Positions 1,477 through 53,369 of a stretch of DNA of 64,000 nt are shown here, piece after piece (position 1 is the stretch's first letter; each line of letters begins with the position of its first letter). The notes under the pieces were generated by a model. That model saw only the letters and a list, made by a program, of their open reading frames with translations. It was not told the origin of the DNA and searched no databases. The translations under genes were made by a program, and so were the position numbers. This stretch comes from Thermodesulfobacteriota bacterium (lineage in GTDB: Bacteria > Desulfobacterota > Desulfobulbia > Desulfobulbales > JBFMBH01). The stretch is from the NCBI GenBank assembly GCA_040755095.1, contig JBFMBH010000004.1:12968-76967 (forward strand), in the 5' to 3' direction.

Positions 1477-2622
1477 ATGTTCGAGTTCGTCTTCCACAAC
1501 CCCACCAAGATCGTCTTCGGCCGCGGCCGAGAGGGCCTCATCGGCAGTGAAATCCGGGAGGCGGGGTGCCGGCGGGTGCTCTTCGTCCACGGCCAGCAGT
1601 CCGTCAAGCGCTCCGGTCTTTATGAACGGACCCTGGCCAGCCTCCAGGAGGCGGGCGTGGAGGCAGTGCCCTTTGGCGGTGTCGTTCCCAATCCAGTGCT
1701 CAGCCACACCCGGCAGGGCGTGGCATTGGCCAAGATCCAGCAGGCGGATGGGGTGTTGGCGGTGGGCGGTGGCTCGGTGCTGGACGAGGCAAAGGCCATT
1801 GCCGCCGGTGCCTGCTCCGACCGGGATGTCTGGGACTTCTTCCTCGGGGAGCCGATCACCGCCGCGCTGCCGGTCTTCACCATCCTGACCCTGGCCGCCA
1901 CCGGCAGCGAGATGAACCGCAACAGCGTCGTCACCAACGAGGAGAGCCGCCAGAAATACGCCATCTCCTCGCCCCATCTCGCGCCCCGGGTCTCCATCCT
2001 CAACCCGGAGCTCACCTGCACCGTGCCGCTGGACCATTCCACCTATGGCGCGGTGGATGCCATCGCCCATGTCATTGAGGCCTACTTCACCGGCCGCATC
2101 CGGGCCCGGCTCCAGGACCGGCTGGTGGAGGCCATCGTCCGTACGGTCATGGACAGCCACAACCAGATCCTGGAGCACCCCACCAGCTACGAGGCCCGGG
2201 CCGAGCTCATGTGGGCCGCCACCCTGGCTTTGAATGGGCTCACCACCGCCGGTGTCGGGGGCTACGGCATGCCCAACCACATGATCGAGCACTCCTTGAG
2301 TGCCTTCTACAACATTCCCCACGGCGCGGGACTGGCCATCGTCATCCCAGCATGGATGAAGTGGCTCGCCCCACGGCAGCCGGCGCCGTTCGAGCGTTTC
2401 GCCCGGGAGATCTTCGGCAAGACCCGGGCCGCCGACGCCATCTCCGGGCTGGAGACCTGGTTCCGGGCCATCAAGGCCCCGACCCGGCTCGGAGAGGTCC
2501 ATATCCCCGCCGCCGATATCCCGGCCCTGGCGGAGAACGCCCATGGTCTGGCCCGGCAGTGGGGCCTGGCCGACGTCTACACCCCGGCGACCATCGGTCA
2601 GATCCTGGAGCTGGCGGCCTGA
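1477..2622 (+). CDS. iron-containing alcohol dehydrogenase (YqhD/butanol dehydrogenase-like)
   Basis: The ORF MFEFVFHNPTKIVFGRG...GGGSVLDEAKAIA...HMIEHSLSAFYNIPHGAGLA looks like the Fe-ADH family. The ATG at 1477 follows AAAGGAGAG with 7-nt spacing; an alternative in-frame ATG lies at 1441. Confidence 0.85.
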   Translation: MFEFVFHNPTKIVFGRGREGLIGSEIREAGCRRVLFVHGQQSVKRSGLYERTLASLQEAGVEAVPFGGVVPNPVLSHTRQGVALAKIQQADGVLAVGGGSVLDEAKAIAAGACSDRDVWDFFLGEPITAALPVFTILTLAATGSEMNRNSVVTNEESRQKYAISSPHLAPRVSILNPELTCTVPLDHSTYGAVDAIAHVIEAYFTGRIRARLQDRLVEAIVRTVMDSHNQILEHPTSYEARAELMWAATLALNGLTTAGVGGYGMPNHMIEHSLSAFYNIPHGAGLAIVIPAWMKWLAPRQPAPFERFAREIFGKTRAADAISGLETWFRAIKAPTRLGEVHIPAADIPALAENAHGLARQWGLADVYTPATIGQILELAA

Positions 2623-2680
2623 GAGGACCGGCCGCAGCGAGCCCACGTCGTAGAGCCGATGGAAGGCCGAAGGAGCCGCC

Positions 2681-3589
2681 ATGGACCGTCGACAGTTCCT
2701 GCAATCGAGCCTTGCCGGCGCCGGCCTGGCGCTCGCCGGCGACCTGGGCCTCAGCCTGGCCGCGCCGCCACCGGGAGCGAGCGCCACCTTCGATCTGGCG
2801 GTAGCCCGGGGACCGGTGGCAGCCCGCAACGTGGCTGCGGCAGTGGCAGCCTGGGGCGGGATGGAGCGCTTTGTCAGCCGGGGTGACGTGGTGGTGGTCA
2901 AGCCCAACATGGCCTGGGACCGCACCCCGGAGCAGGCCGCCAACACCGACCCCGCGGTGGTGGCCGAAGTGGTACGCCTGTGCCTGGCGGCTGGCGCCAA
3001 GACAGTCAAGGTCTTCGACCGGCCGGTGAACGACCCCCGGCGCTGCTACAGGCAAAGCGGCATCGAGAGGGCGGCAATCGGGGCCGGTGCCCAGGTCAAG
3101 CAGATGGACGATCGCCGTTTCCGGGAGATGGCGGTCAAAGGCGAGACCATGGCCAACTGGCCCCTGTATGTGGAGGTCTTCGAAGCGGACAAGGTGATCA
3201 ACGTCCCCATCGCCAAGCACCACAGCCTGGCTCGCATGACTGGCGCCATGAAGAACTGGATGGGGATCATGGGCGGCAACCGCAGCCGCATCCACCAGCG
3301 GTTGGACGAATCCCTCTGCGACTTGGCCAGCTTCGTCCGCCCCACCTTGACGGTGCTGGACGCTACCCGGGTCCTCTTGCGCAACGGCCCGCAGGGCGGC
3401 GACCTGGGCGACGTTCTGGCCGCTGACACCATCGTGGTGGGCCAGGACCAGGTGGCCGTGGATGCCTGGGCCAGTACCCTGTTCGGCCGGACCCCGGATG
3501 ATCTGCCGGTGCTGGCTGCGGCCCGGCGGCGCGATCTGGGCAAGACCGAGCTGGCCGCCATCACGATCCGGGAGCTGGCTGTATCCTGA
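2681..3589 (+). CDS. Tat-signal DUF362-like protein
   Basis: The N-terminus MDRRQFLQSSLAGAGLALAG is a twin-arginine signal. The body (VVVKPN..., INVPIAKHH, LTVLDATRVL) resembles the DUF362 family as I recall it. Confidence 0.7.
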   Translation: MDRRQFLQSSLAGAGLALAGDLGLSLAAPPPGASATFDLAVARGPVAARNVAAAVAAWGGMERFVSRGDVVVVKPNMAWDRTPEQAANTDPAVVAEVVRLCLAAGAKTVKVFDRPVNDPRRCYRQSGIERAAIGAGAQVKQMDDRRFREMAVKGETMANWPLYVEVFEADKVINVPIAKHHSLARMTGAMKNWMGIMGGNRSRIHQRLDESLCDLASFVRPTLTVLDATRVLLRNGPQGGDLGDVLAADTIVVGQDQVAVDAWASTLFGRTPDDLPVLAAARRRDLGKTELAAITIRELAVS

Positions 3590-3590
3590 G

Positions 3591-5132
3591 ATGCCCTGGC
3601 GCCGCCTGTGCCAGGGCCTGTTCCTGGCCCTGTTCCTCTGGCTCTTCATCGAAACCGACGGCCGGGGCGAGGACCAGCTCGGCCATCCGGTGAAGCTGTT
3701 CCTGGAGCTCGACCCGCTCCTGGGCCTGGCGACCGGCCTGGCCCGCCACTCCTGGCCCCTGACCTTCTGGCCCAGCTTCGCTACCGTCGTCCTTACCATC
3801 CTCCTGGGCCGGGTCTTCTGCGGCTGGATCTGCCCTTTGGGGACCTGCCACGACTTGGTGGGCGGTTCGCCGTCCGCCGCCGAGTCGGGCCGCCGCTGGC
3901 ACTGGCTCAAATACGCACTGCTGGCCAGCCTCCTGGCCGCGGCCTTCTTTTCTGTCCAGCTGGCGGGCATCTTCGACCCCTTGTCCCTCCTGGTCCGCTC
4001 CCTGGCCCTCGGGGTGTTTCCAGCCCTGCAGGCGGCTGCTTCAGCCTTCTTCGACGCCGTCTTCCGTCTGGATCCGCCCTGCCTGGTGGACCTTTCCGAA
4101 GGCCTTTACAATTTCCTGCGCGCCCGGGTATTCGCCCTCCGGCAGCCGCTCTTCCACCAGGGCCTGTTCCTGACCCTGCTCCTGGTCCTGATCCTGGCTG
4201 CCAACCGCTACCAGCGCCGGCTCTGGTGCCGCTGCCTGTGTCCTCTGGGGGCGCTCCTCGGGCTTTTGAGCCGCTGGTCCCTCCTGCGGCGGCAGGTATC
4301 CGCGGCCTGCAGCGACTGTGGGGCCTGCACCGGGGTCTGCCCGGGCAACGCCACCGGCAGCGCTGACCAGACCGCCGAATGCCTGCGCTGCCTCCAGTGC
4401 CGGACCGTCTGCCGGCCGGGAGCAGTGGCCTTCCGCTGGCGGGGCAGCGACGGTCGCCAGGGGGTGGAGCTGGGCCGGCGGCGTCTTCTGGTGGCCGCCG
4501 CCACCGGCATGGTGGCCGCGCCTCTCCTCCCCAACGAGCCTGCCGCCCGGAAGCAGTCAGCCGCGCTGCTGCGGCCACCGGGAGCCCTGCCGGAGGAGGC
4601 CTTTGTCGACGCCTGCATCCGCTGCGGCGAATGCATGAAGGTCTGCACCACCGGCGGCCTGCAGCCGGCGCTTCTGGAGGCGGGCCTCGTGGGCCTCTGG
4701 ACCCCGGTCCTGGTGCCTCGCCTGGGATACTGCGAGCTCCGCTGCACCCTCTGTGGCCAAGTCTGCCCCACCGGCGCCATCGCCCGCCTTGATCCGGAGA
4801 AGAAAGCCCGCACCCGCATCGGCCTGGCCTTCGTGGACCGCAGCCGCTGTCTGCCCTGGTCCCAGGGCCTGCCCTGCATCGTCTGCGAGGAGGTCTGTCC
4901 CACGCCGAAAAAGGCCATCCTCCTCGCACCCGAGACGGTGACCGACGCCCTGGGCCGGCGGCAACAGGTGCAGGTACCCCGGGTGGTGGTGGAGCGGTGT
5001 GTGGGCTGCGGCATCTGCGAGGCCCGCTGCCCTCTGGCCAGCCAGCCCGCCATTGTCATCAACAACACCAACGAATCCCGCCGGTCGGAGCCGGATATCC
5101 TGCTGCCGGCCCCCGGGGACAGCATGACCTGA
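3591..5132 (+). CDS. membrane-anchored polyferredoxin (NapH/MauN-like, multiple 4Fe-4S motifs)
   Basis: The ATG at 3591 lies 2 nt after the DUF362 stop. The N-terminal part is hydrophobic, with FCGWICPLG and WCRCLCPLG motifs. Six CxxCxxC(x3)CP-type clusters follow (CSDCGACTGVCP, CIRCGECMKVC, CTLCGQVCP, CIVCEEVCP, CVGCGICEARCP and others). Confidence 0.8.
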   Translation: MPWRRLCQGLFLALFLWLFIETDGRGEDQLGHPVKLFLELDPLLGLATGLARHSWPLTFWPSFATVVLTILLGRVFCGWICPLGTCHDLVGGSPSAAESGRRWHWLKYALLASLLAAAFFSVQLAGIFDPLSLLVRSLALGVFPALQAAASAFFDAVFRLDPPCLVDLSEGLYNFLRARVFALRQPLFHQGLFLTLLLVLILAANRYQRRLWCRCLCPLGALLGLLSRWSLLRRQVSAACSDCGACTGVCPGNATGSADQTAECLRCLQCRTVCRPGAVAFRWRGSDGRQGVELGRRRLLVAAATGMVAAPLLPNEPAARKQSAALLRPPGALPEEAFVDACIRCGECMKVCTTGGLQPALLEAGLVGLWTPVLVPRLGYCELRCTLCGQVCPTGAIARLDPEKKARTRIGLAFVDRSRCLPWSQGLPCIVCEEVCPTPKKAILLAPETVTDALGRRQQVQVPRVVVERCVGCGICEARCPLASQPAIVINNTNESRRSEPDILLPAPGDSMT

Positions 5133-5145
5133 AAGTGCCCCCGGT

Positions 5146-6867
5146 TTACGGTCCGGCGCGCCCAGGGCAAGGCCGCAGGGCCTCCAGCACGGCCCGCTGG
5201 GCCTGGCGCTCGGCCCGCCGGCGGGCAACGTGGATGGGCTGGCCGCGGTCACGGCCCCGGCCGCTGACGTACATGGCGGTGGCGATGGTGCCGGGGGTGG
5301 GGGTGAAGTCCTGGAACTGGCGGGGGGCAAGACCCAGGCCGCGGAGGCGGGTGGCCAACGCCTCCATGTGGGCCTGGGTGCAGCCGGGATGGCTGGCGAT
5401 CAGGTAAGGGGTGAGGGGGGGGAGGCGACCGCCGTTCAGCCGGCGGCAGGTGGCCAGGAAGGCCTCCAGAACCTCAGCCCCTGGCTTGTGCATGAGGCGC
5501 AGCACCTCGGGCTCGGTGTGCTCGGGGGCGATCTTGAGGGCACCGGGCAGGTGCTGCTCCAGGATCCGAGCCAGCAGGCGCGGGGTGCGGAGCAGAAGCT
5601 CCATGCGCAAGCCCGACGAAACAAAGAGGTGCTTGACCCCGGCGCGGCGGGAAACGGCGTCCAGGAGAGCCAGGACCCGCTCCTCGTCAATGGCCAGATG
5701 GGAGCAGATCCGGGGATAGAGACAGTCCCGGCGGCGGCAGGGACCCGGACGGCGGCAGGAGGTGCCGTAGAGGTTGGCGGTCGGGCCGCCCAGATCCGTG
5801 ATCGTGCCCGAAAAATCCGGTTGCCGGCAGATCGCCTCCACCTCGGCCAGCACCGAAGCCAGGGAGCGGCTGGTCACCACCGGTCCCTGGTGGCGGGCGA
5901 TGGCACAAAAGGAGCAGTTGCCGCAGCAGCCCCGGACGATGGTCACCGAATGGCGGATCATCCGAAAGGCCGGCACATCACCGGCGCCCGGGTGGGACAC
6001 GCGGCTATAGGGCAGGCCGTAGAGCGCGTCCAGTTCCTCAGGACCAAGGGGCGGCGACGCCGGGTGCTGGAGGATCCACACCGCCTGCTGCCGTTGCAGG
6101 AGGGGCTGGTCATCCCCAGCCCGGGCCTGGCGGTCCACCGCCTTTTCCGCGTCCAGAAAACGGCCGGGATCAGCGGCGATCTCCTCCCAGGAGGGCAAGA
6201 CCAACGGCGGGACAGGATAGGGCCGCTCCCGTTGCTCCCGGTCGGTGAGCCGCTCGCAGGTGCCGGGGATGCCGGTCAGATCAAGCCCGGCCGCCAGCCG
6301 CTGGGCCACCGCAAGGACCGCCCGCTCCCCCATGCCGTAGACGAGAAGATCGGCCTTGGCATCGGCCAGCACCGACGAGCGCAGCCGCTCCTGCTGGAAA
6401 TCGTAATGAACGAAACGGCGCAGGGAGGCCTCGAGGCCGCCGAGCACGATGGGCAGCCCCGGCCAGGCGGCCCGGGCCAACTGGCTGTAACGGATGGTGG
6501 CCCGGTCGGGCCGGCGGCGGTTGCCACGGCTGGCAGCACCCGGAAAATAGGGATCTCCCCCAGGGCTGTAGTCATCCCGGTCCCGGACCCGGGCATTGCC
6601 CGAATAGTTGGCGACGACCGAGTCCAGATTGCCGGCGCTGATGCCGGCGAAAAGCCGGGGCCGGCGGAAGCGAAGGAAGTCCTGAGGGCCGTCGTGGCGG
6701 GGTTGGGCCAGGACCGCCACCCGAAAACCGTGGGCCGAGAGCCACTGGCCGATGAGGGCGATGCCAAAGGCCGGGTGGTCCACGTAGCCATCGCCGGTGA
6801 CGAGAAGGACATCCACTGCCGGCCAGCCGCGGCTTCGCACCTCCTCTGACGACGCAGGCAGGAACAC
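5146..6867 (-). CDS. ygiQ: YgiQ-family radical SAM protein (UPF0313)
   Basis: 573 aa with a GTG start. FLPASSEEVRSRGWPAVDVLLVTGDGYVDHPAFG parallels the E. coli YgiQ N-terminus. The CGNCSFC radical-SAM cluster motif is present. Confidence 0.85.
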   Translation of the reverse strand: MFLPASSEEVRSRGWPAVDVLLVTGDGYVDHPAFGIALIGQWLSAHGFRVAVLAQPRHDGPQDFLRFRRPRLFAGISAGNLDSVVANYSGNARVRDRDDYSPGGDPYFPGAASRGNRRRPDRATIRYSQLARAAWPGLPIVLGGLEASLRRFVHYDFQQERLRSSVLADAKADLLVYGMGERAVLAVAQRLAAGLDLTGIPGTCERLTDREQRERPYPVPPLVLPSWEEIAADPGRFLDAEKAVDRQARAGDDQPLLQRQQAVWILQHPASPPLGPEELDALYGLPYSRVSHPGAGDVPAFRMIRHSVTIVRGCCGNCSFCAIARHQGPVVTSRSLASVLAEVEAICRQPDFSGTITDLGGPTANLYGTSCRRPGPCRRRDCLYPRICSHLAIDEERVLALLDAVSRRAGVKHLFVSSGLRMELLLRTPRLLARILEQHLPGALKIAPEHTEPEVLRLMHKPGAEVLEAFLATCRRLNGGRLPPLTPYLIASHPGCTQAHMEALATRLRGLGLAPRQFQDFTPTPGTIATAMYVSGRGRDRGQPIHVARRRAERQAQRAVLEALRPCPGRAGP

Positions 6868-12065: not shown

Positions 12066-12142
12066 TGGTCGGGACGAGAGGATTTGAACCTCCGACTCCC
12101 TGAACCCCATTCAGGTGCGCTACCAGACTGCGCTACGTCCCG
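12066..12142 (-). tRNA. tRNA-Pro (anticodon GGG)
   Basis: The minus strand reads CGGGACGTAGCGCAGTCTGGTAGCGCACCTGAATGGGGTTCAGGGAGTCGGAGGTTCAAATCCTCTCGTCCCGACCA. It folds as a cloverleaf with anticodon loop AUGGGGU and an encoded CCA. Confidence 0.93.
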
Positions 12143-19767: not shown

Positions 19768-19842
19768 TGGTAGGCGCGGGCGGGATTGAACCGCCGACTT
19801 CTACCGCGTCAAGGTAGCGCTCTCCCACTGAGCTACGCGCCT
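19768..19842 (-). tRNA. tRNA-Val (anticodon GAC)
   Basis: The minus strand reads AGGCGCGTAGCTCAGTGGGAGAGCGCTACCTTGACGCGGTAGAAGTCGGCGGTTCAATCCCGCCCGCGCCTACCA, 75 nt, with anticodon loop UUGACGC. Confidence 0.93.
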
Positions 19843-22740: not shown

Positions 22741-22843
22741 TGATAGCCAGGCACCCTGCGGCACACAAAGGATCTTGCTACCGTTGCTTCCTCCCGGACC
22801 TGGCGGGGTTCGCAAGACTTTGTTGCGCAGGACCCGGCTATCA
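22741..22843 (-). ncRNA. ffs: signal recognition particle RNA (small/4.5S type)
   Basis: The minus strand forms a long hairpin: 5' GATAGCCGGGTCCTGCG pairs with 3' CGCAGGGTGCCTGGCTATC. It contains the conserved CCAGGUCCGGGAGGAAGCAAC domain IV motif and is followed by a U7 run. This is the classic position upstream of dnaX. Ends are approximate, within about 5 nt. Confidence 0.85.
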
Positions 22844-22861
22844 AACCGAAGTCCTTTCTTC

Positions 22862-22954
<93 letters not shown>

Positions 22955-23044
22955 TGATGGCAAACGGTTGTCGAGGGATATCTCCTCCCGGCGGGCCGCC
23001 ATACCCCAACGGGCATTTCAGGCTTCCGGCTGACGACATGGCTT

Positions 23045-23113
<69 letters not shown>

Positions 23114-23137
<24 letters not shown>

Positions 23138-29966: not shown

Positions 29967-30560
29967 CTATCTCTGTCGCCGCCGGCAGGCCAGGCCGGCA
30001 AGGCCAGAGCCCAGAAGGAGGATGGAGGCAGGCGCGGGCACCGGGGTCCCGGCATCCGAGGAGACTACCAGCTCCGTCACGCGCCAGGATTCATCGTTGA
30101 TGCCCTGAAATCCAGAGCCATAGCCATAGAAGGAGAGGCTCAACGTGGTCGCCGTGTGGGCAAAGGTGAAGCCGTTGTTGTAGTTCTGGAAGTAGCGATC
30201 GATTGGCCCCCAGCTGTTGATGCCGTTGTAGTTGCCGATTCCATCGGCGGTATCGGTGTTGGACTCGGCCCCGCCGAAGTTGTCAAATGTCCAGCCCTGA
30301 GCCGCCCCGTCCACACTGAAACCGAAGGCGTCTGGTGACCAGCCACCATCCGAGCCATCCCAGCTGTCCATGATGAAGAGGTCAAAATTGACGGTGACCG
30401 TTGAATGTGGCGCCAGGCCACTCAGATTGATGGTCACGGCATCTGTGGTATGGTCGCCCAGGTTGGGATTGGAGTAAATAACCGTCGATGCTTGTGCCAG
30501 GTTGGTCATGCCGAGCATCAAGAATCCGGTTGCCAATGCGGCCCGCAGCAGTCTCTTCAT
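29967..30560 (-). CDS. PEP-CTERM sorting-domain secreted protein (unrelated mature domain)
   Basis: The signal peptide is MKRLLRAALATGFLMLGMTNLAQA. The C-terminus is TPVPAPASILLLGSGLAGLACRRRQR. The ATG at 30560 follows GGAGCGAGACCACG. Confidence 0.85.
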   Translation of the reverse strand: MKRLLRAALATGFLMLGMTNLAQASTVIYSNPNLGDHTTDAVTINLSGLAPHSTVTVNFDLFIMDSWDGSDGGWSPDAFGFSVDGAAQGWTFDNFGGAESNTDTADGIGNYNGINSWGPIDRYFQNYNNGFTFAHTATTLSLSFYGYGSGFQGINDESWRVTELVVSSDAGTPVPAPASILLLGSGLAGLACRRRQR

Positions 30561-30684
30561 CGTGGTCTCGCTCCTTCGGTTGCCTTGTTCTGCCAAGTGT
30601 GAGAGTCCCCGCCCTGGGGGGGAGGCGGCCGATTAGCATCTTTGGCCGCCACGACGGCTCAGGGTGCCGCCTGCGCAGAAGGCT

Positions 30685-48329: not shown

Positions 48330-51011
48330 GTGGCCATGATCAAGGATGATTCTCCCCCCTCGCCCAGGGCCGAGCTGGCCAAGGCTTACGAATTCGCCCA
48401 GGTGGAGGAAAACTGGCGCCGGAGATGGGCGGCCGAGCACCCCTTCCGGGCCGGCCTGGAGCCTGACCGGCCCGCCTTCTGCATCGTCATCCCGCCGCCC
48501 AACGTCACCGGTGTGCTCCACGTCGGCCACGCCCTCAACAACACCCTGCAGGACGTTCTGGTCCGCTACCACCGGATGCGGGGGGACAACACCCTCTGGG
48601 TGCCCGGCACCGACCATGCCGGCATCGCCACCCAGAACGTGGTGGAGCGGCAGCTGGCCGCCGAGGGCAGCTCCCGCCACGCCATCGGCCGGGAGCGCTT
48701 CGTGGACCGGGTCTGGCAGTGGCGCCAGGAATCCGGTGGCCAGATCATCCACCAGCTCAAGCGCCTGGGCTGCTCCTGCGACTGGGAGCGGGAGCGGTTC
48801 ACCATGGACGAGGGCCTGTCCCGGGCCGTGCGGGAGGTGTTCGTCCGCCTCTACCAGGACGGCCTCATCTACCAGGGGGACTACATCATCAACTGGTGTC
48901 CCCGCTGCCTGACCGCCCTGGCAGATCTGGAGGTGGAGCACGAGCCGACTGCCGGCCAGCTCTATGTCATCCGCTATCCCCTGGCCGCCGGCTCCGGCCA
49001 CCTCCTGGTCGCCACCACCCGGCCGGAGACCATGCTGGGGGATACGGCGGTGGCGGTCCATCCCGGGGACGAGCGCTACCGGCACCTGACCGGCTCCTCG
49101 GTGCTCCTGCCCCTGGTGGGCCGTCCCATCCCGGTGGTCATGGACACCCACGTGGACATGGCCTTCGGCACCGGCGCCCTCAAGGTCACCCCGGCCCATG
49201 ATCTCGCCGACTTCGAGCTGGCGCGGCGCCACGACCTGCCGGCCATGAAGATCATGGACAACGAGGGCCGCATGACCGGGGAGGCGGGTCCCTATGCCGG
49301 CCTCGACCGTTTCGCCTGCCGCCAGCAGGTGGTGGCGGATCTGGCGGCCGCCGGCCTCCTGGAGCGGGTGGAGGACTACCAGCACGGTGTCGGTCACTGC
49401 TACCGCTGCCGGACGGTGGTGGAGCCCACCCTCTCCCGCCAGTGGTTCGTGGCCGTGAAGCCCCTGGCCGCCAAGGCCATGGCCGCGGTGCGCAGCGGCG
49501 AGACCCGCATCCATCCGGCGGCCTGGGAAAAGAGCTTCTTCGACTGGATGGAGAACATCCGGGACTGGTGCATCTCCCGCCAGATCTGGTGGGGCCACCA
49601 GGTGCCGGCCTGGACCTGCGGCGCCTGCGGCCGGCTGGTGGTGGCGGTGGAGGCGCCCCGGGCCTGTCCCGACTGCGGCGCCGGCCAGCTCAGCCAGTCT
49701 CCGGACGTGCTGGACACCTGGTTCTCCTCGGCCCTGTGGCCATTTTCCACCCTGGGCTGGCCCGAGGCGACCAGGGAGCTGGCGCTCTTCTACCCCACCT
49801 CGGTCCTGGTGACGAGCTTCGACATCCTGTTCTTCTGGGTTGCCCGGATGATGATGATGGGCATCCATTTCCTGGGCCAGAGCCCCTTTGCCGACGTCTA
49901 TCTGCATGCCCTGGTCCGGGATGCCCAGGGCCAGAAGATGAGCAAGTCCAAGGGCAATGTCCTTGACCCGCTGCTGCTCATGGACCGCTACGGCACCGAT
50001 GCCCTGCGCCTGACCCTCACCGCTTTTGCCGCCCAGGGCCGGGAGATCCGGCTGGCCGAGGAGCGGATCGAAGGCTACCGCCACTTTCTCAACAAGCTGT
50101 GGAACGCCAGCCGCTTCGCCCTGCCCCACCTGCCTGCCGCGGCCGAGCCCCTGCCGCCTGCTGCCGAGCTGGGCCTGGCCCACCGCTGGATCCTCTCCCG
50201 CCTGGCCCGGACGATGAAGGCCACCATCGAGGCCCTGCATAGCTACCACTTCGACGATGTGGCCAATACGATCTACCAGTTCTTCTGGTACGAATTCTGC
50301 GACTGGTACCTGGAATGGATCAAGCCGGCCCTCTACGGGGAGGATTCCCCGGAGCGCCGCGCCAGCCGGCTGGTCCTGGGCCGGGTCCTGGAAGACGCTA
50401 TTGCCCTGCTCCACCCGGTGGTGCCCTTCATCACCGAGGAGCTGTGGCAGGTGCTGCCCGGCAAGGGGGAGCTGCTGTGCCGCTCCCCCTTCCCGACCCC
50501 GGAGGAGGACCGCATCGATCCCCAGGCCGAGGCGGCCATGGCGGTGGTGCAGGGGGTGACGGCGGGCCTGCGCACCATCCGCGCCGATCTGTCCATCCCG
50601 CCCGGCGCCTGGATCTCCGCCCGGATCGTCGCCCCGGATCCGGAGCGGGCCGAGCTTTTGGCGGCCAACCGGGAGGCCATCGGTCTTTTGGCCCGGGCCA
50701 AGGAGGTCGAGGTGGTGACCAGCGGCGAGCGGCCGGCCGGGGCCGCGGGCCATCTCTGGCAGGACGTGGAGATCTTCGTGCCCGTGGCCGGGCTGGTGGA
50801 CATCGAGCAGGAGATGGCCAAGCTGGCGCGGGAGCGGCAGAAGGTGGAGCAGCAGCTGGCCGGGGTGACCAAGAAGCTGGCCAACGAGCAGTTCCGGGCC
50901 CAGGCCCCGGCCGCGGTGGTGGCCGCCGAGGCGGAGAAGGAGGAGAAGCTCCTGGCCCGCCTCGCGACCATCGACGCCAACCGGCAGCGACTCCAGGAGC
51001 TGCAGGCGTGA
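48330..51011 (+). CDS. valS: valine--tRNA ligase
   Basis: 893 aa. It has HIGH (PPNVTGVLHVGH), KMSKS and a C-terminal coiled coil. The start is either GTG 48330 or ATG 48336. Confidence 0.96.
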   Translation: MAMIKDDSPPSPRAELAKAYEFAQVEENWRRRWAAEHPFRAGLEPDRPAFCIVIPPPNVTGVLHVGHALNNTLQDVLVRYHRMRGDNTLWVPGTDHAGIATQNVVERQLAAEGSSRHAIGRERFVDRVWQWRQESGGQIIHQLKRLGCSCDWERERFTMDEGLSRAVREVFVRLYQDGLIYQGDYIINWCPRCLTALADLEVEHEPTAGQLYVIRYPLAAGSGHLLVATTRPETMLGDTAVAVHPGDERYRHLTGSSVLLPLVGRPIPVVMDTHVDMAFGTGALKVTPAHDLADFELARRHDLPAMKIMDNEGRMTGEAGPYAGLDRFACRQQVVADLAAAGLLERVEDYQHGVGHCYRCRTVVEPTLSRQWFVAVKPLAAKAMAAVRSGETRIHPAAWEKSFFDWMENIRDWCISRQIWWGHQVPAWTCGACGRLVVAVEAPRACPDCGAGQLSQSPDVLDTWFSSALWPFSTLGWPEATRELALFYPTSVLVTSFDILFFWVARMMMMGIHFLGQSPFADVYLHALVRDAQGQKMSKSKGNVLDPLLLMDRYGTDALRLTLTAFAAQGREIRLAEERIEGYRHFLNKLWNASRFALPHLPAAAEPLPPAAELGLAHRWILSRLARTMKATIEALHSYHFDDVANTIYQFFWYEFCDWYLEWIKPALYGEDSPERRASRLVLGRVLEDAIALLHPVVPFITEELWQVLPGKGELLCRSPFPTPEEDRIDPQAEAAMAVVQGVTAGLRTIRADLSIPPGAWISARIVAPDPERAELLAANREAIGLLARAKEVEVVTSGERPAGAAGHLWQDVEIFVPVAGLVDIEQEMAKLARERQKVEQQLAGVTKKLANEQFRAQAPAAVVAAEAEKEEKLLARLATIDANRQRLQELQA

Positions 51012-51901
51012 GCATCGACCCCTTCCTTCTGCGGGACAGCCTGACCCGCTTCCTGGCCGAGGATCTGGGCCGGGGGGACGTCACCACCGAGGCGATCTTC
51101 GCGCCGGAGGCCATGACTGCCGGCCGCTTCCTGGCCAAAGGCCATTTCGTGGCCTGCGGTGTTGCCACAGTGGCGCCCCTGGTCTTCACCCTCCTGGACC
51201 CGGAGGTGCAGGTCCGGCCCGGGGTTGCGGACGGCCAGTTGGTGGCGCCCGGCCAGACGCTGTGCACCCTGGCCGGCCGCGCCCGTTCGCTCCTCCGGGG
51301 TGAGCGGGTGGCCCTCAACCTGGCGATGCGCCTTTCCGGCATCGCCACCCTGACCGCGGCCTTTGTCGAAAGACTTGCCGGCCTGCCGGTGCGGGTGCTG
51401 GATACCAGAAAGACGGTCCCCGGGCTGCGGCTGCTGGACAAGTACGCGGTGCGCACCGGCGGCGGTCACAACCACCGCTTCGGCCTCGACGACGGCATCC
51501 TGGTGAAGGACAACCATGTCGCTGCCTGCGGCTCCATCGCCGAGGCGGTCGCCCGGGTGCGGGCCCGGGCCCCCCACACCCTGCGCCTGCAGGTGGAGGC
51601 CAGCACCCTCGACGAGGTGGCCGAGTGTCTGGCCGCCGGCGTGGATGCCATCCTCCTGGACAACATGGATGGTCCCACCCTGCGCCAGGCGGTGGCCCTG
51701 GTGGCCGGCCGTGCCTTTCTCGAGGCCTCCGGCGGCATCACCCTGGAGACGGTGCGGGCGGTGGCCGAGACCGGGGTCCAGGCGGTCTCGGTGGGCGCCC
51801 TCACCCACTCGGCGCCGGCCGCCGACATCAGCATGCGCCTGGGGCCTGGCAGCGGGAAGGAACAACGAATATCGAACCGCAGAAGAGACCGGCAAGGCTG
51901 A
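51008..51901 (+). CDS. nadC: nicotinate-nucleotide diphosphorylase (carboxylating)
   Basis: The GTG at 51008 overlaps the valS stop (GTGA). ...LDTRKTVPGLRLLDKYAVRTGGGHNHRFGLDD...LLDNM... is the QPRTase signature. The C-terminal ~20 residues (GPGSGKEQRISNRRRDRQG) extend into the low-GC islet. Confidence 0.9.
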   Translation: MSIDPFLLRDSLTRFLAEDLGRGDVTTEAIFAPEAMTAGRFLAKGHFVACGVATVAPLVFTLLDPEVQVRPGVADGQLVAPGQTLCTLAGRARSLLRGERVALNLAMRLSGIATLTAAFVERLAGLPVRVLDTRKTVPGLRLLDKYAVRTGGGHNHRFGLDDGILVKDNHVAACGSIAEAVARVRARAPHTLRLQVEASTLDEVAECLAAGVDAILLDNMDGPTLRQAVALVAGRAFLEASGGITLETVRAVAETGVQAVSVGALTHSAPAADISMRLGPGSGKEQRISNRRRDRQG

Positions 51902-52002
51902 TTCGAAGCGTCAGCTACCGGTCCCTTCAACCTGCGAAATTGTTGGGCCTACCCTTACGCAGCACGCCTGGGCCTCGATTGGCGAGTCACGCGAATGTTG
52001 AG

Positions 52003-52296
52003 ATGATACCGACGATCAGCTCAACACACGGAGGCCAGATCACCGAAATGCCACTTCACCTTTACCTGAACGTCCACGCATCCGGTTCAGTGCCGCAGGA
52101 TTGGGAGCCAAGCAAGGGCGACACTGTAAAATATGCGGTGCATAATCCTGTGGTACGCTGTTACCTCCGACAACTTCTGACCGGCAGCTGGCAAAAGGTG
52201 ATAAAAAAAGGTACCACTGGCGAGGTTCACTATTTTGAGCATTCGTCTGGCCAGGTTGCTGGAGTAAAATTCTTCCCGCGCAAGGACATGTCATGA
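52003..52296 (+). CDS. small hypothetical protein in the low-GC islet
   Basis: 97-aa ORF, or 82 aa from the ATG at 52048 (GGAGG lies 13 nt upstream of that ATG). Local G+C is about 47%. The stop overlaps the next ORF start (ATGA). I recognise no family. Confidence 0.5.
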   Translation: MIPTISSTHGGQITEMPLHLYLNVHASGSVPQDWEPSKGDTVKYAVHNPVVRCYLRQLLTGSWQKVIKKGTTGEVHYFEHSSGQVAGVKFFPRKDMS

Positions 52297-52640
52297 AACA
52301 ACGCGTCCATCTCCATACACTGCTGGCACAAGAGGTTGACAAGGATCAGCAATTTGCATCCTTTGCATTGCTTTCCTTGGGGGTAATCGAGTCGCTATTT
52401 GCTGGGGCCATTTCTGTATCCAATGCAGTTGATCTCTTTTTTCACGCTGACAATTGTCTGTTCGTCCGAAAGCAGTTACGGCAAAAAGCCGCTGATGAGA
52501 TAATGGGTCGTGGCGTGCAACTGCCCGATATATTTGATGCATTGACCGCGGCAGAAGCACAGCAAGAATTTCAGCGAGAACTGACGGCAATGCGCTTGCT
52601 GTGCCTGAAACTTCTTGGAAACATTCAACTGGCGGCATAA
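52293..52640 (+). CDS. small hypothetical helical protein in the low-GC islet
   Basis: 115-aa ORF translationally coupled to the previous one, with acidic, helical-looking composition. A weak hairpin plus T5 follows at about 52643-52670. Confidence 0.55.
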   Translation: MKQRVHLHTLLAQEVDKDQQFASFALLSLGVIESLFAGAISVSNAVDLFFHADNCLFVRKQLRQKAADEIMGRGVQLPDIFDALTAAEAQQEFQRELTAMRLLCLKLLGNIQLAA

Positions 52641-52793
52641 GGTCGGAAACAGCTTCTCTCTGCCGTTTTTCGACTGAACAAGGAAGGCCATCGGCTCGGG
52701 AGCGCACAAGAGTCAGCATGTTGGTATCGGCTCTGCGGTTCGTCTTTGGCAGTAAGGCCTGGCCGCGGCGGGAATGATTCGGAGGACAACGGC

Positions 52794-53369
52794 ATGGGGG
52801 CAACACGGCTGCTCTTGGTAGACGACGAGGAGATCGTGCTCCGGGCCTTGAGCCGGGATCTGAATGCCGAAGGCTACGAGGTCGCGGCCGTCGGGAGCGG
52901 CCAGGACGCGCTCCTGCGGCTGGGCAAGGACGTCCGGTTCGACGTGGTCATCACGGATCTGGTCATGGAGGGCCTGGACGGCATCCAGGTCCTGCGGGAG
53001 GCCCGGAGGCTGGACCCGGAGGTGGGGGTGATCATCCTCACCGGCCATGGCGCCCTGTCCTCGGCCATCGATGCCCTGCGCCTGGGCGCCGACGACTACC
53101 TGCTCAAGCCCTGCGCCACCGAGGAGCTGCTCTTGCGCATCCGGCGCTGCCAGGAGCGCCAGGAGCTGCGCCGCAAGCTCAAGCTCTACGAGAACATCCT
53201 GCCCATCTGCGCGGTCTGCAAGATGATCCGGGACGATTCCGGCAAGGGTCCTGGCCAGGGGGAGTGGCTGCCGGTGGACGTCTACATCACCCGCAAGACC
53301 GGGGTGCTCATGAGCCACACCTACTGCCCGGAGTGCGGCCGCAAGGCGCTCCAGGAGCTCATCCGCTGA
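52794..53369 (+). CDS. response regulator: REC domain plus C-terminal Cys-pair (CxxC...CPxC) tail
   Basis: LLLVDDEEIVLRAL...FDVVITDLVMEGLDG...LLKP is the receiver domain. The tail is ILPICAVCKMIRDDSG...WLPVDVYI...SHTYCPECGRKAL. Confidence 0.85.
   Translation: MGATRLLLVDDEEIVLRALSRDLNAEGYEVAAVGSGQDALLRLGKDVRFDVVITDLVMEGLDGIQVLREARRLDPEVGVIILTGHGALSSAIDALRLGADDYLLKPCATEELLLRIRRCQERQELRRKLKLYENILPICAVCKMIRDDSGKGPGQGEWLPVDVYITRKTGVLMSHTYCPECGRKALQELIR

Follow-up and report, generated by a model that had tools for sequence, protein, structure and literature searches.

What kind of element is the low-GC islet that lies downstream of nadC in this 64,000-nt stretch of a Thermodesulfobacteriota bacterium genome (GCA_040755095.1, contig JBFMBH010000004.1; hereafter the window), and what do its two small overlapping open reading frames (ORFs) encode? 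An initial annotation, made by reading the letters, had likened the two ORFs to a toxin–antitoxin or toxin–immunity cassette. The homology of both proteins supports that likeness: ORF A and ORF B very probably constitute a toxin–immunity pair, in toxin-first order, with A the predicted toxin and B its predicted DUF3969-type immunity protein. The roles are assigned in this way because the A domain ends Rhs, pre-toxin HINT (PT-HINT) and CdiA-like toxins and B is akin to the DUF3969 proteins encoded after them. We have good confidence in the explanation as a whole, which is weighted mostly on the identification of the pair. The islet and its two genes are:

51858–52760, no strand assigned: low-GC islet of foreign DNA, about 0.9 kb, delimited by composition profiles.
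52048–52296, plus strand: ORF A, putative 82-aa basic stand-alone toxin, homologous to the toxin domain at the C-terminal end of Rhs proteins and of CdiA-like and PT-HINT proteins.
52293–52640, plus strand: ORF B, putative 115-aa all-helical immunity (antitoxin-like) protein and divergent DUF3969 relative, whose start overlaps the ORF A stop by ATGA.

Both ORFs are real genes, as follows from homologues of fixed length, from ratios of non-synonymous to synonymous substitution (dN/dS) of 0.16 for A and 0.10 for B against the nearest cassettes (~80% DNA identity), and from confident AlphaFold2 models. ORF A has 529 database relatives; those listed are 67–78% identical, are nearly all 78–82 aa long and start with MPLHLY. 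The 109 relatives of ORF B are 53–83% identical and almost all 115–116 aa long. The profile searches and structure predictions that the initial annotation had proposed placed B near DUF3969 and returned models with a predicted local distance difference test (pLDDT) score above 92 for both proteins (92 for A and 92.6 for the all-helical B, each built on its family alignment). Coding constraint is strong in both ORFs, and the frames and the ATGA overlap (52293–52296) are as first described. ORF B had been called acidic and helical; it is helical, but only mildly acidic (pI 5.85; 13 D+E against 11 K+R). ORF A has a pI of 9.4, and the median of its family is 9.9.

The length of ORF A had been left at 97 or 82 aa. 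The family N-terminus and the lengths of homologues favour 82 aa from the ATG at 52048, and the 97-aa start, which is the one given in the annotation of this metagenome-assembled genome (AB1634_01755), was rejected; by the family N-terminus, the public annotation begins the gene 15 codons too early (52003–52047). The closest cassettes carry an in-frame TGA upstream of the start, from which the window differs by 1 nt (by reading the alignment).

The evidence that A is a toxin comes from larger proteins. When 1.84 billion representative proteins were searched with a profile built from the A family, 234 matches resulted. Among the best 150 of these, 98 contain a near-complete domain, 38 of them in proteins of at most 120 aa and 60 in longer ones. 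The domain ends no more than 15 residues from the C-terminus in 59 of the 60 longer proteins, and ORF A is 27–41% identical to these fused C-terminal domains over the whole domain. What precedes it varies: the N-terminal part of P0310 (1941 aa) combines SpvB, FG-GAP, TcdB_midN and RHS, RHS repeats precede the domain in P0364 (1588 aa), P0377 and P0367, a PT-HINT domain does so in P0328, P0294 and P0341, and the DUF637 of CdiA-type haemagglutinins does so in P0350. Polymorphic toxins are defined by just this architecture, in which a variable domain closes the protein (Zhang et al. 2012, PMC3482391).

The toxin domain is also found on 13 plasmids of Moraxella bovis, under an annotated filamentous-haemagglutinin gene in 11 of them, and on the one plasmid examined it lies at the 3' end of an 8.1-kb filamentous-haemagglutinin gene. 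On plasmid NZ_CP087852.1 (26048–32275; locus L100), the haemagglutinin gene that ends in the toxin domain is followed by a DUF3969 gene, an orphan gene annotated as 'polymorphic toxin type 24' and a small ORF, an order of genes that matches a contact-dependent inhibition locus. Filamentous-haemagglutinin-like proteins of M. bovis plasmids have been treated as possible adhesins (PMC9585708); our results suggest that these "adhesins" would be contact-dependent inhibition toxins.

The gene immediately after the fused toxin encodes a DUF3969 protein in all four loci that were opened:

Gene after the fused toxin: DUF3969, 128 aa in locus L097, 111 aa in L098, 117 aa in L099, and annotated "DUF3969 family protein" in L100.

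Where visible, orphan toxin/immunity modules follow these loci. One of them, in L097 (8351–9060), pairs a 63-aa orphan toxin-like fragment with a WapI-like immunity gene, and a DDE transposase gene comes next.

ORF B occupies the same position after a toxin as these genes, has the same length as DUF3969 proteins and shares their all-helical prediction. It matches PF13108 (DUF3969), a family for which no function is recorded, at 19.5 bits and E 0.001 over positions 4–92 of 106. The same profile matches 16 of 32 members of the B family at E<0.01 (best 7.7e-6), and many relatives of ORF B carry a precomputed PF13108 assignment. The motifs LG...G...F...G.(E/Q)L.D align between ORF B and DUF3969 proteins, although identity to canonical members is only 16–20%. 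We therefore regard ORF B as a likely divergent member of DUF3969 at the family level, judging from profile and motif similarity. Some names given to its relatives in JGI data ('cytochrome P450', 'RNA-binding protein YlmH') look spurious. DUF3969 is absent from Zhang et al. 2012 (PMC3482391), and a search of the literature found no mention of DUF3969 or PF13108, nor a match for the toxin peptide motifs. The kind of system is known, and we did not find the toxin domain or its pairing with a DUF3969 immunity protein catalogued or described.

Like Rhs-CT/RhsI and CdiA-CT/CdiI, the pair in the window combines a homologous C-terminal toxin domain with an immunity gene that follows, often overlapping. 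It differs in that ORF A is a bare 82-aa domain, with no repeats, pre-toxin domain, PAAR or signal sequence, that no secretion genes are found among the neighbours, and that neither the Pfam nor the NCBIfam copy searched contains the toxin domain. A consists of the toxin domain only, lacks a signal peptide and any known targeting motif, and has no trafficking or delivery region; it is a stand-alone toxin cassette, so not a polymorphic toxin. The locus shares with polymorphic toxins a domain that stands at the extreme C-terminus of multidomain relatives and an immunity gene downstream; with type II modules it shares a small bicistronic operon of 82-aa and 115-aa ORFs whose pairing is conserved.

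Pairing of A and B is obligate: at the stand-alone loci examined, A always comes first and B follows, the two overlapping by 4 nt or separated by a short gap. The genes around these cassettes encode proteins as different as a 530-aa protein of unknown function, AAA_14/DUF4143, an EF-G paralogue, RecO and an ECF sigma factor. Some loci contain an rve transposase or a weak resolvase match, and other copies adjoin HicA, MqsA or RHH_8 toxin–antitoxin genes. At one locus (L090), a transposase gene of the IS200/605-type Y1 class adjoins a toxin gene that is truncated at the 5' side, and B is intact. This arrangement (2114–3348) lies on a 3.9-kb contig that also carries HicA/HicB-like and MqsA-like toxin–antitoxin genes.

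Where would such a pair act? Since A lacks both a trafficking domain and a signal peptide and the 20 kb around the pair are housekeeping, we propose that it acts within the cell that makes it, as a toxin-first, type II-like toxin–antitoxin module, a proposal on which our confidence is evenly balanced. Both genes would be co-transcribed, and translation of B would be coupled to that of A through the ATGA overlap. B would also have the better ribosome-binding site: its Shine–Dalgarno sequence AAGGA lies 8 nt upstream of the start, and the GGAGG of ORF A is 13 nt from its start and unconserved. The B protein would bind A one-to-one and block it, and if the supply of B failed, free A would stop growth. 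Selfish or defence behaviour of this sort would explain the spread and persistence of the cassette across phyla. Polymorphic toxins and toxin–antitoxin systems can share toxin domains, and stand-alone toxin cassettes exist (Zhang et al. 2012, PMC3482391).

The resemblance to toxin-first type II systems (higBA, hicAB, mqsRA) extends to the layout of two small genes in one direction, toxin upstream, that overlap by 4 nt, to a basic toxin with a mildly acidic partner, horizontal acquisition, a single copy among housekeeping genes and, in other genomes, neighbouring toxin–antitoxin genes. The differences are that there is no sequence or significant fold similarity to them and that B has no helix-turn-helix (HTH) or ribbon-helix-helix (RHH) domain. 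As a more specific possibility, which we put forward tentatively, the MPLHLY-type toxin and its DUF3969-like partner may represent an undescribed, widespread toxin–antitoxin family domesticated from a polymorphic-toxin warhead. Such a family would act cell-autonomously, for example in abortive infection or addiction, and would cover Thermodesulfobacteriota, Acidobacteriota, Planctomycetota and Gammaproteobacteria. If true, it would provide a first function for DUF3969 and a new toxin activity.

Alternatively, A could be an exported effector, loaded non-covalently on a type VI secretion system, an extracellular contractile injection system or another machine encoded elsewhere, with B protecting kin. 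All fused relatives are delivered inter-bacterial toxins, and B acts as the immunity family in fused-toxin loci and has no antitoxin-type DNA-binding domain, as this explanation would have it. Yet genes for an adaptor, VgrG, PAAR, Hcp or secretion components are absent both here and at the stand-alone loci examined, the protein bears none of the export signals looked for, and the cassette occurs in phyla with different envelopes, which fits a cell-autonomous module better. We consider export improbable.

A related explanation is that the islet is an orphan, or reserve, module: a silent spare that could exchange the warhead of an Rhs or CdiA protein encoded elsewhere in the genome by recombining with the 3' end of its gene, with B giving immunity against kin armed with this toxin. 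Polymorphic-toxin loci typically come with stand-alone toxin cassettes and immunity genes (PMC3482391), orphans were seen downstream of the main toxin in L097 and L100, and the intact B beside a truncated A in L090 fits a benefit from immunity only. As in the orphan modules downstream of rhs and cdi genes, a stand-alone toxin and an immunity gene occur with no delivery domain (PMC3482391). Here, however, there is no parent locus: the islet sits between nadC and a response-regulator gene, with no Rhs or CdiA gene in the ~10 kb scanned on either side. The cassette has its own conserved start codon, the MPLHLY N-terminus is invariant in hundreds of stand-alone copies, ORF A is under purifying selection, the module is dispersed singly in many phyla, and by reading we saw no pre-toxin homology (PxxxxDPxGL, VENN) upstream that could guide recombination. 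This reserve role is hence quite improbable, and the cell-autonomous toxin–antitoxin module remains the function that we prefer.

The activity of the toxin was approached through its predicted fold and conserved residues. The topology of A is predicted to be beta-alpha-beta-beta-beta (strand 21–30, helix 34–43, strands 48–55, 58–65 and 70–77). Residues P16, L40, G46, W48, K50, H61, F63 and V70 are invariant in both stand-alone and fused forms, and N33, S67 and K74 are nearly so. If the predicted hairpins adopt the usual register, K50, H61 and K74 would lie on one face of the sheet. Because A is small and basic and has these three conserved residues on one predicted face, our best guess, held with slightly less than balanced confidence, is that it cleaves RNA as a metal-independent RNase.

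Searches with A gave no match in Pfam, NCBIfam, PADLOC or PHROGs; a wide alignment run against Pfam and NCBIfam, and a single fused C-terminal domain run against PHROGs, matched nothing either. The search of PADLOC-DB with A and B, up to E 1, matched no known anti-phage defence system, and a search of phage genomes with both proteins found nothing. Sequence-profile searches of the PDB with both families returned chance matches only, such as a designed beta-trefoil repeat. Foldseek comparisons of A with the PDB and BFVD (best E ~0.6–0.9) and of B with the PDB gave nothing significant; no match of either model had E below 0.6.

These results also bear on whether the pair is a very divergent member of the RelE/ParE-like or HicA-like RNase toxin–antitoxin families that the searches missed. 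The toxin-first order is that of higBA, hicAB and mqsRA, the small basic toxin has a topology loosely like that of RelE, and an archaeal RelE (1wmi) was among the non-significant Foldseek matches of A to the PDB (rank 17, TM-score 0.38, E 3.4; the best PDB match had E 0.94). The segment GEVHYFEH also resembles the GSHH.F.H of HicA, a resemblance seen by eye only. Against this, Pfam gave no match to RelE/ParE, HigB, HicA or MqsR up to E 1 and NCBIfam was likewise empty, hhalign of the family profile against E. coli HicA and RelE found nothing, no HicA structure was among the top 50 Foldseek matches, and B is unrelated to the HicB, HigA and RelB types. Membership of these families is accordingly an unlikely explanation, and a toxin domain shared with polymorphic toxins is the one that we retain.

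Several results weigh against the explanation that we favour. The PF13108 score of ORF B lies under the gathering cut-off of 25 bits, and the B family gave a weak hhalign match (E 0.025) to the one canonical DUF3969 sequence with which it was compared. No DNA-binding domain (HTH, RHH, AbrB or Phd) was found in ORF B with Pfam and NCBIfam, so that, unlike for classical type II antitoxins, autoregulation is unsupported. The RNase guess found no homology support in the PDB, Pfam, NCBIfam or BFVD searches. The view covers 64 kb of the genome, and a delivery system or an Rhs locus may lie elsewhere. Finally, no relative with an empty site was found in GTDB genomes or JGI metagenomes, and the borders of the insertion are those given by composition.

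If the pair is what we propose, DUF3969 gains a testable immunity or antitoxin role. A compact toxin domain of ~75 residues is defined that is lacking in Pfam, NCBIfam, PADLOC, PHROGs and the PDB, that is used by Rhs, Tc-like, PT-HINT and CdiA proteins, and that is found in several phyla as a solitary cassette of two genes as well. The locus would be a clean case of an inter-bacterial warhead and its immunity protein living as a toxin–antitoxin-like selfish module. The advance is incremental unless the toxin activity or the fold proves new.

That the pair is foreign to this genome can be read from base composition. The 300-nt G+C minimum of the islet, 0.467, is the lowest in the window and lies ~5 standard deviations under its mean (0.683, standard deviation 0.043). 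G+C is 0.70–0.74 in the flanks against 0.47–0.50 at 52100–52600, and is back up near 52760. G+C at third codon positions (GC3) is 0.54 in ORF A and 0.46 in ORF B, compared with 0.90 in the nadC core, 0.93 in the response-regulator gene and 0.92 in valS. Sliding-window G+C and GC3 hence agree with the drop and the coordinates first reported. DNA similarity to the closest cassettes, which are ~80% identical and lie on unrelated contigs, is confined to 51999–52640, that is, ~50 nt of leader and both ORFs, and stops exactly at the ORF B stop; the outer parts of the islet, 51858–51998 and 52641–52760, fall outside it.

We conclude that the islet is horizontally acquired, foreign DNA, given its G+C and GC3 contrast, the rare codons in the tail of nadC, the cassettes of ~80% identical DNA that lie on unrelated contigs, and the lower G+C of the pair relative to its flanks in five other hosts as well. 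The initial annotation had suspected horizontal acquisition, and the GC3 contrast, the protein identity across phyla and the unrelated flanks at every locus examined bear it out. Cassettes in Acidobacteriota, Gammaproteobacteria and other lineages encode proteins that are 67–83% identical to those of the window, and a copy in Pirellulales reaches 56%. The two ORFs are not conserved core genes of native G+C.

The islet lies between two native genes, the first of which it has altered at its 3' end:

51008–51901, plus strand: nadC, encoding quinolinate phosphoribosyltransferase (TIGR00078, E 4e-93; Pfam QRPTase_N and QRPTase_C).
51857–51901, plus strand: non-native 3' tail of nadC, KEQRISNRRRDRQG plus stop, forming the left islet junction, identified from codons, G+C and homologue lengths.
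52794–53369, plus strand: native response-regulator gene marking the right edge (Pfam Response_reg, E 9e-28; GC3 0.93).

The TIGR00078 profile covers residues 12–277 of the 297 of NadC, and the native part of the gene reaches about 51856. After the DISM motif most NadC homologues have 4–6 residues and a few have 11 or 20; the protein in the window has 21. Thirteen tail codons (51860–51898) include CAA, CGA, ATA, AGA, AGA and CAA, each used at most 1.3 times per 1000 in eight neighbouring genes (3943 codons). G+C in the tail region falls from 0.72–0.80 to 0.53–0.60, and similarity to other nadC genes at the DNA level ends at 51835–51837. These data place the left junction near 51857–51862. That the end of nadC looked non-native had been noticed earlier, with a tail put at ~20 codons against ~15 here; the profile end, homologue lengths and rare codons all agree with a foreign tail. 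The insertion would have overwritten the last nadC codons and the stop, and NadC would thereby have gained a foreign tail of ~15 residues outside the profile match. In this way the module would have rewritten the C-terminus of a housekeeping enzyme.

Short repeats occur near both borders, where the initial annotation had seen no flanking direct repeat:

51843–51855, no strand assigned: left copy of a 13-nt direct repeat, GGCCTGGCAGCGG, with 1 mismatch to its partner.
52756–52768, no strand assigned: right copy of the 13-nt direct repeat, GGCCTGGCCGCGG, partner of 51843–51855.
51873–51883, no strand assigned: left arm of an 11-nt perfect inverted repeat, CGAACCGCAGA, found by repeat search.
52732–52742, no strand assigned: right arm of the 11-nt inverted repeat, TCTGCGGTTCG, partner of 51873–51883.

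Their significance is marginal. The direct repeat was matched by 7 of 1000 shuffles in narrow zones picked post hoc and by 22 of 500 in wider zones, and the inverted repeat by 1 of 1000 and 10 of 500, respectively. Neither border repeat extends further, no target-site duplication was seen beside the inverted repeat by reading the sequence, and no flank repeats are shared across nine other cassettes. A deletion between the direct repeats would fuse nadC in frame to the response-regulator gene, an implausible ancestral arrangement. As first noted, there is no integrase or transposase: the islet has room only for its two ORFs, so it holds no recombinase gene. When GTDB genomes and JGI metagenomes were scanned with nadC, no close relative with an empty site turned up; the nearest nadC genes are 61–62% identical and have another downstream gene. 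Hence the borders of the insertion rest on composition. All four tRNA genes of the window are far from the islet, which is therefore not inserted at a tRNA; these genes (Pro-GGG, Val-GAC, Ser-GGA and Ser-CGA) and a small signal recognition particle RNA lie at 12066–12142, 19768–19842 and 22742–23137. In a host of 71% G+C (locus L005), a 31-nt palindromic repeat resembling repetitive extragenic palindromic (REP) elements, GGTGGATGCGCTTCGC.TA.CCAC, stands on both sides of the cassette (4867–4897 and 5643–5673; 27 of 31 positions identical, a score reached by 0 of 200 shuffles). It is absent at the other loci and is probably specific to that host.

Could the islet instead be decaying passenger DNA whose ORFs have no function in this host? 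The islet contains two candidate regulatory features:

51996–52026, plus strand: imperfect palindrome TGTTGAGATGAT-N7-ATCAGCTCAACA in the ORF A 5' leader, with 12-nt arms that are 92% complementary.
52642–52674, plus strand: weak hairpin with a T5 run (fold −11.4 kcal/mol, z-score −1.3).

The palindrome (fold z-score −2.97, a value reached in 2 of 200 shuffles) shares bases with a conserved TGAGATGAT similar to an extended −10 box. The sequence TGAGATGATA is invariant in the six closest cassettes, and the leader element is absent from distant ones. It may be a promoter or operator, to judge from its sequence; a scan predicted no promoter upstream of ORF A. The hairpin, noted earlier as weak, is not convincing as a terminator: the scan found no terminator there. 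An Rfam search of the islet returned chance matches only. The lack of a predicted promoter and terminator, the distance of the Shine–Dalgarno sequence of A from its start and the lack of mobility genes would suit passenger DNA, but both ORFs are full length, keep all the residues invariant in their families and show the constraint described above (dN/dS 0.10–0.16), and the unameliorated GC3 argues for recent arrival and not for long decay. Passenger DNA is, of the explanations considered, highly improbable, and we maintain that the islet probably carries a functional toxin–immunity pair.

Ten neighbours of the islet scanned within ~10 kb are all housekeeping genes, with no recombinase, Rhs or secretion gene among them. 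They encode a mannose-1-P guanylyltransferase, a lytic transglycosylase, a PEP synthetase regulator, an HD phosphohydrolase, an AMP-dependent ligase, PBP1, a CBS protein, PabB-like enzymes, a multihaem cytochrome and CobA/HemD. The valS stop overlaps the GTG start of nadC (GTGA, 51008–51011), and the two genes appear translationally coupled; their order is kept in relatives from the Desulfobulbia and Nitrospirota. The response-regulator gene has GGAGGA 7 nt before its ATG. Its product consists of a receiver domain and a tail of ~60 aa with two CxxC pairs (ICAVCK...YCPECG), for which Pfam gave a weak Zn_ribbon_8 match only and no standard output domain. The second-deepest G+C dip of the window (0.56–0.60), at 29967–30596 on the minus strand, corresponds to a 209-aa ORF with a signal peptide and a PEP-CTERM-like tail, VPAPASILLLGSGLAGLACRRRQR.

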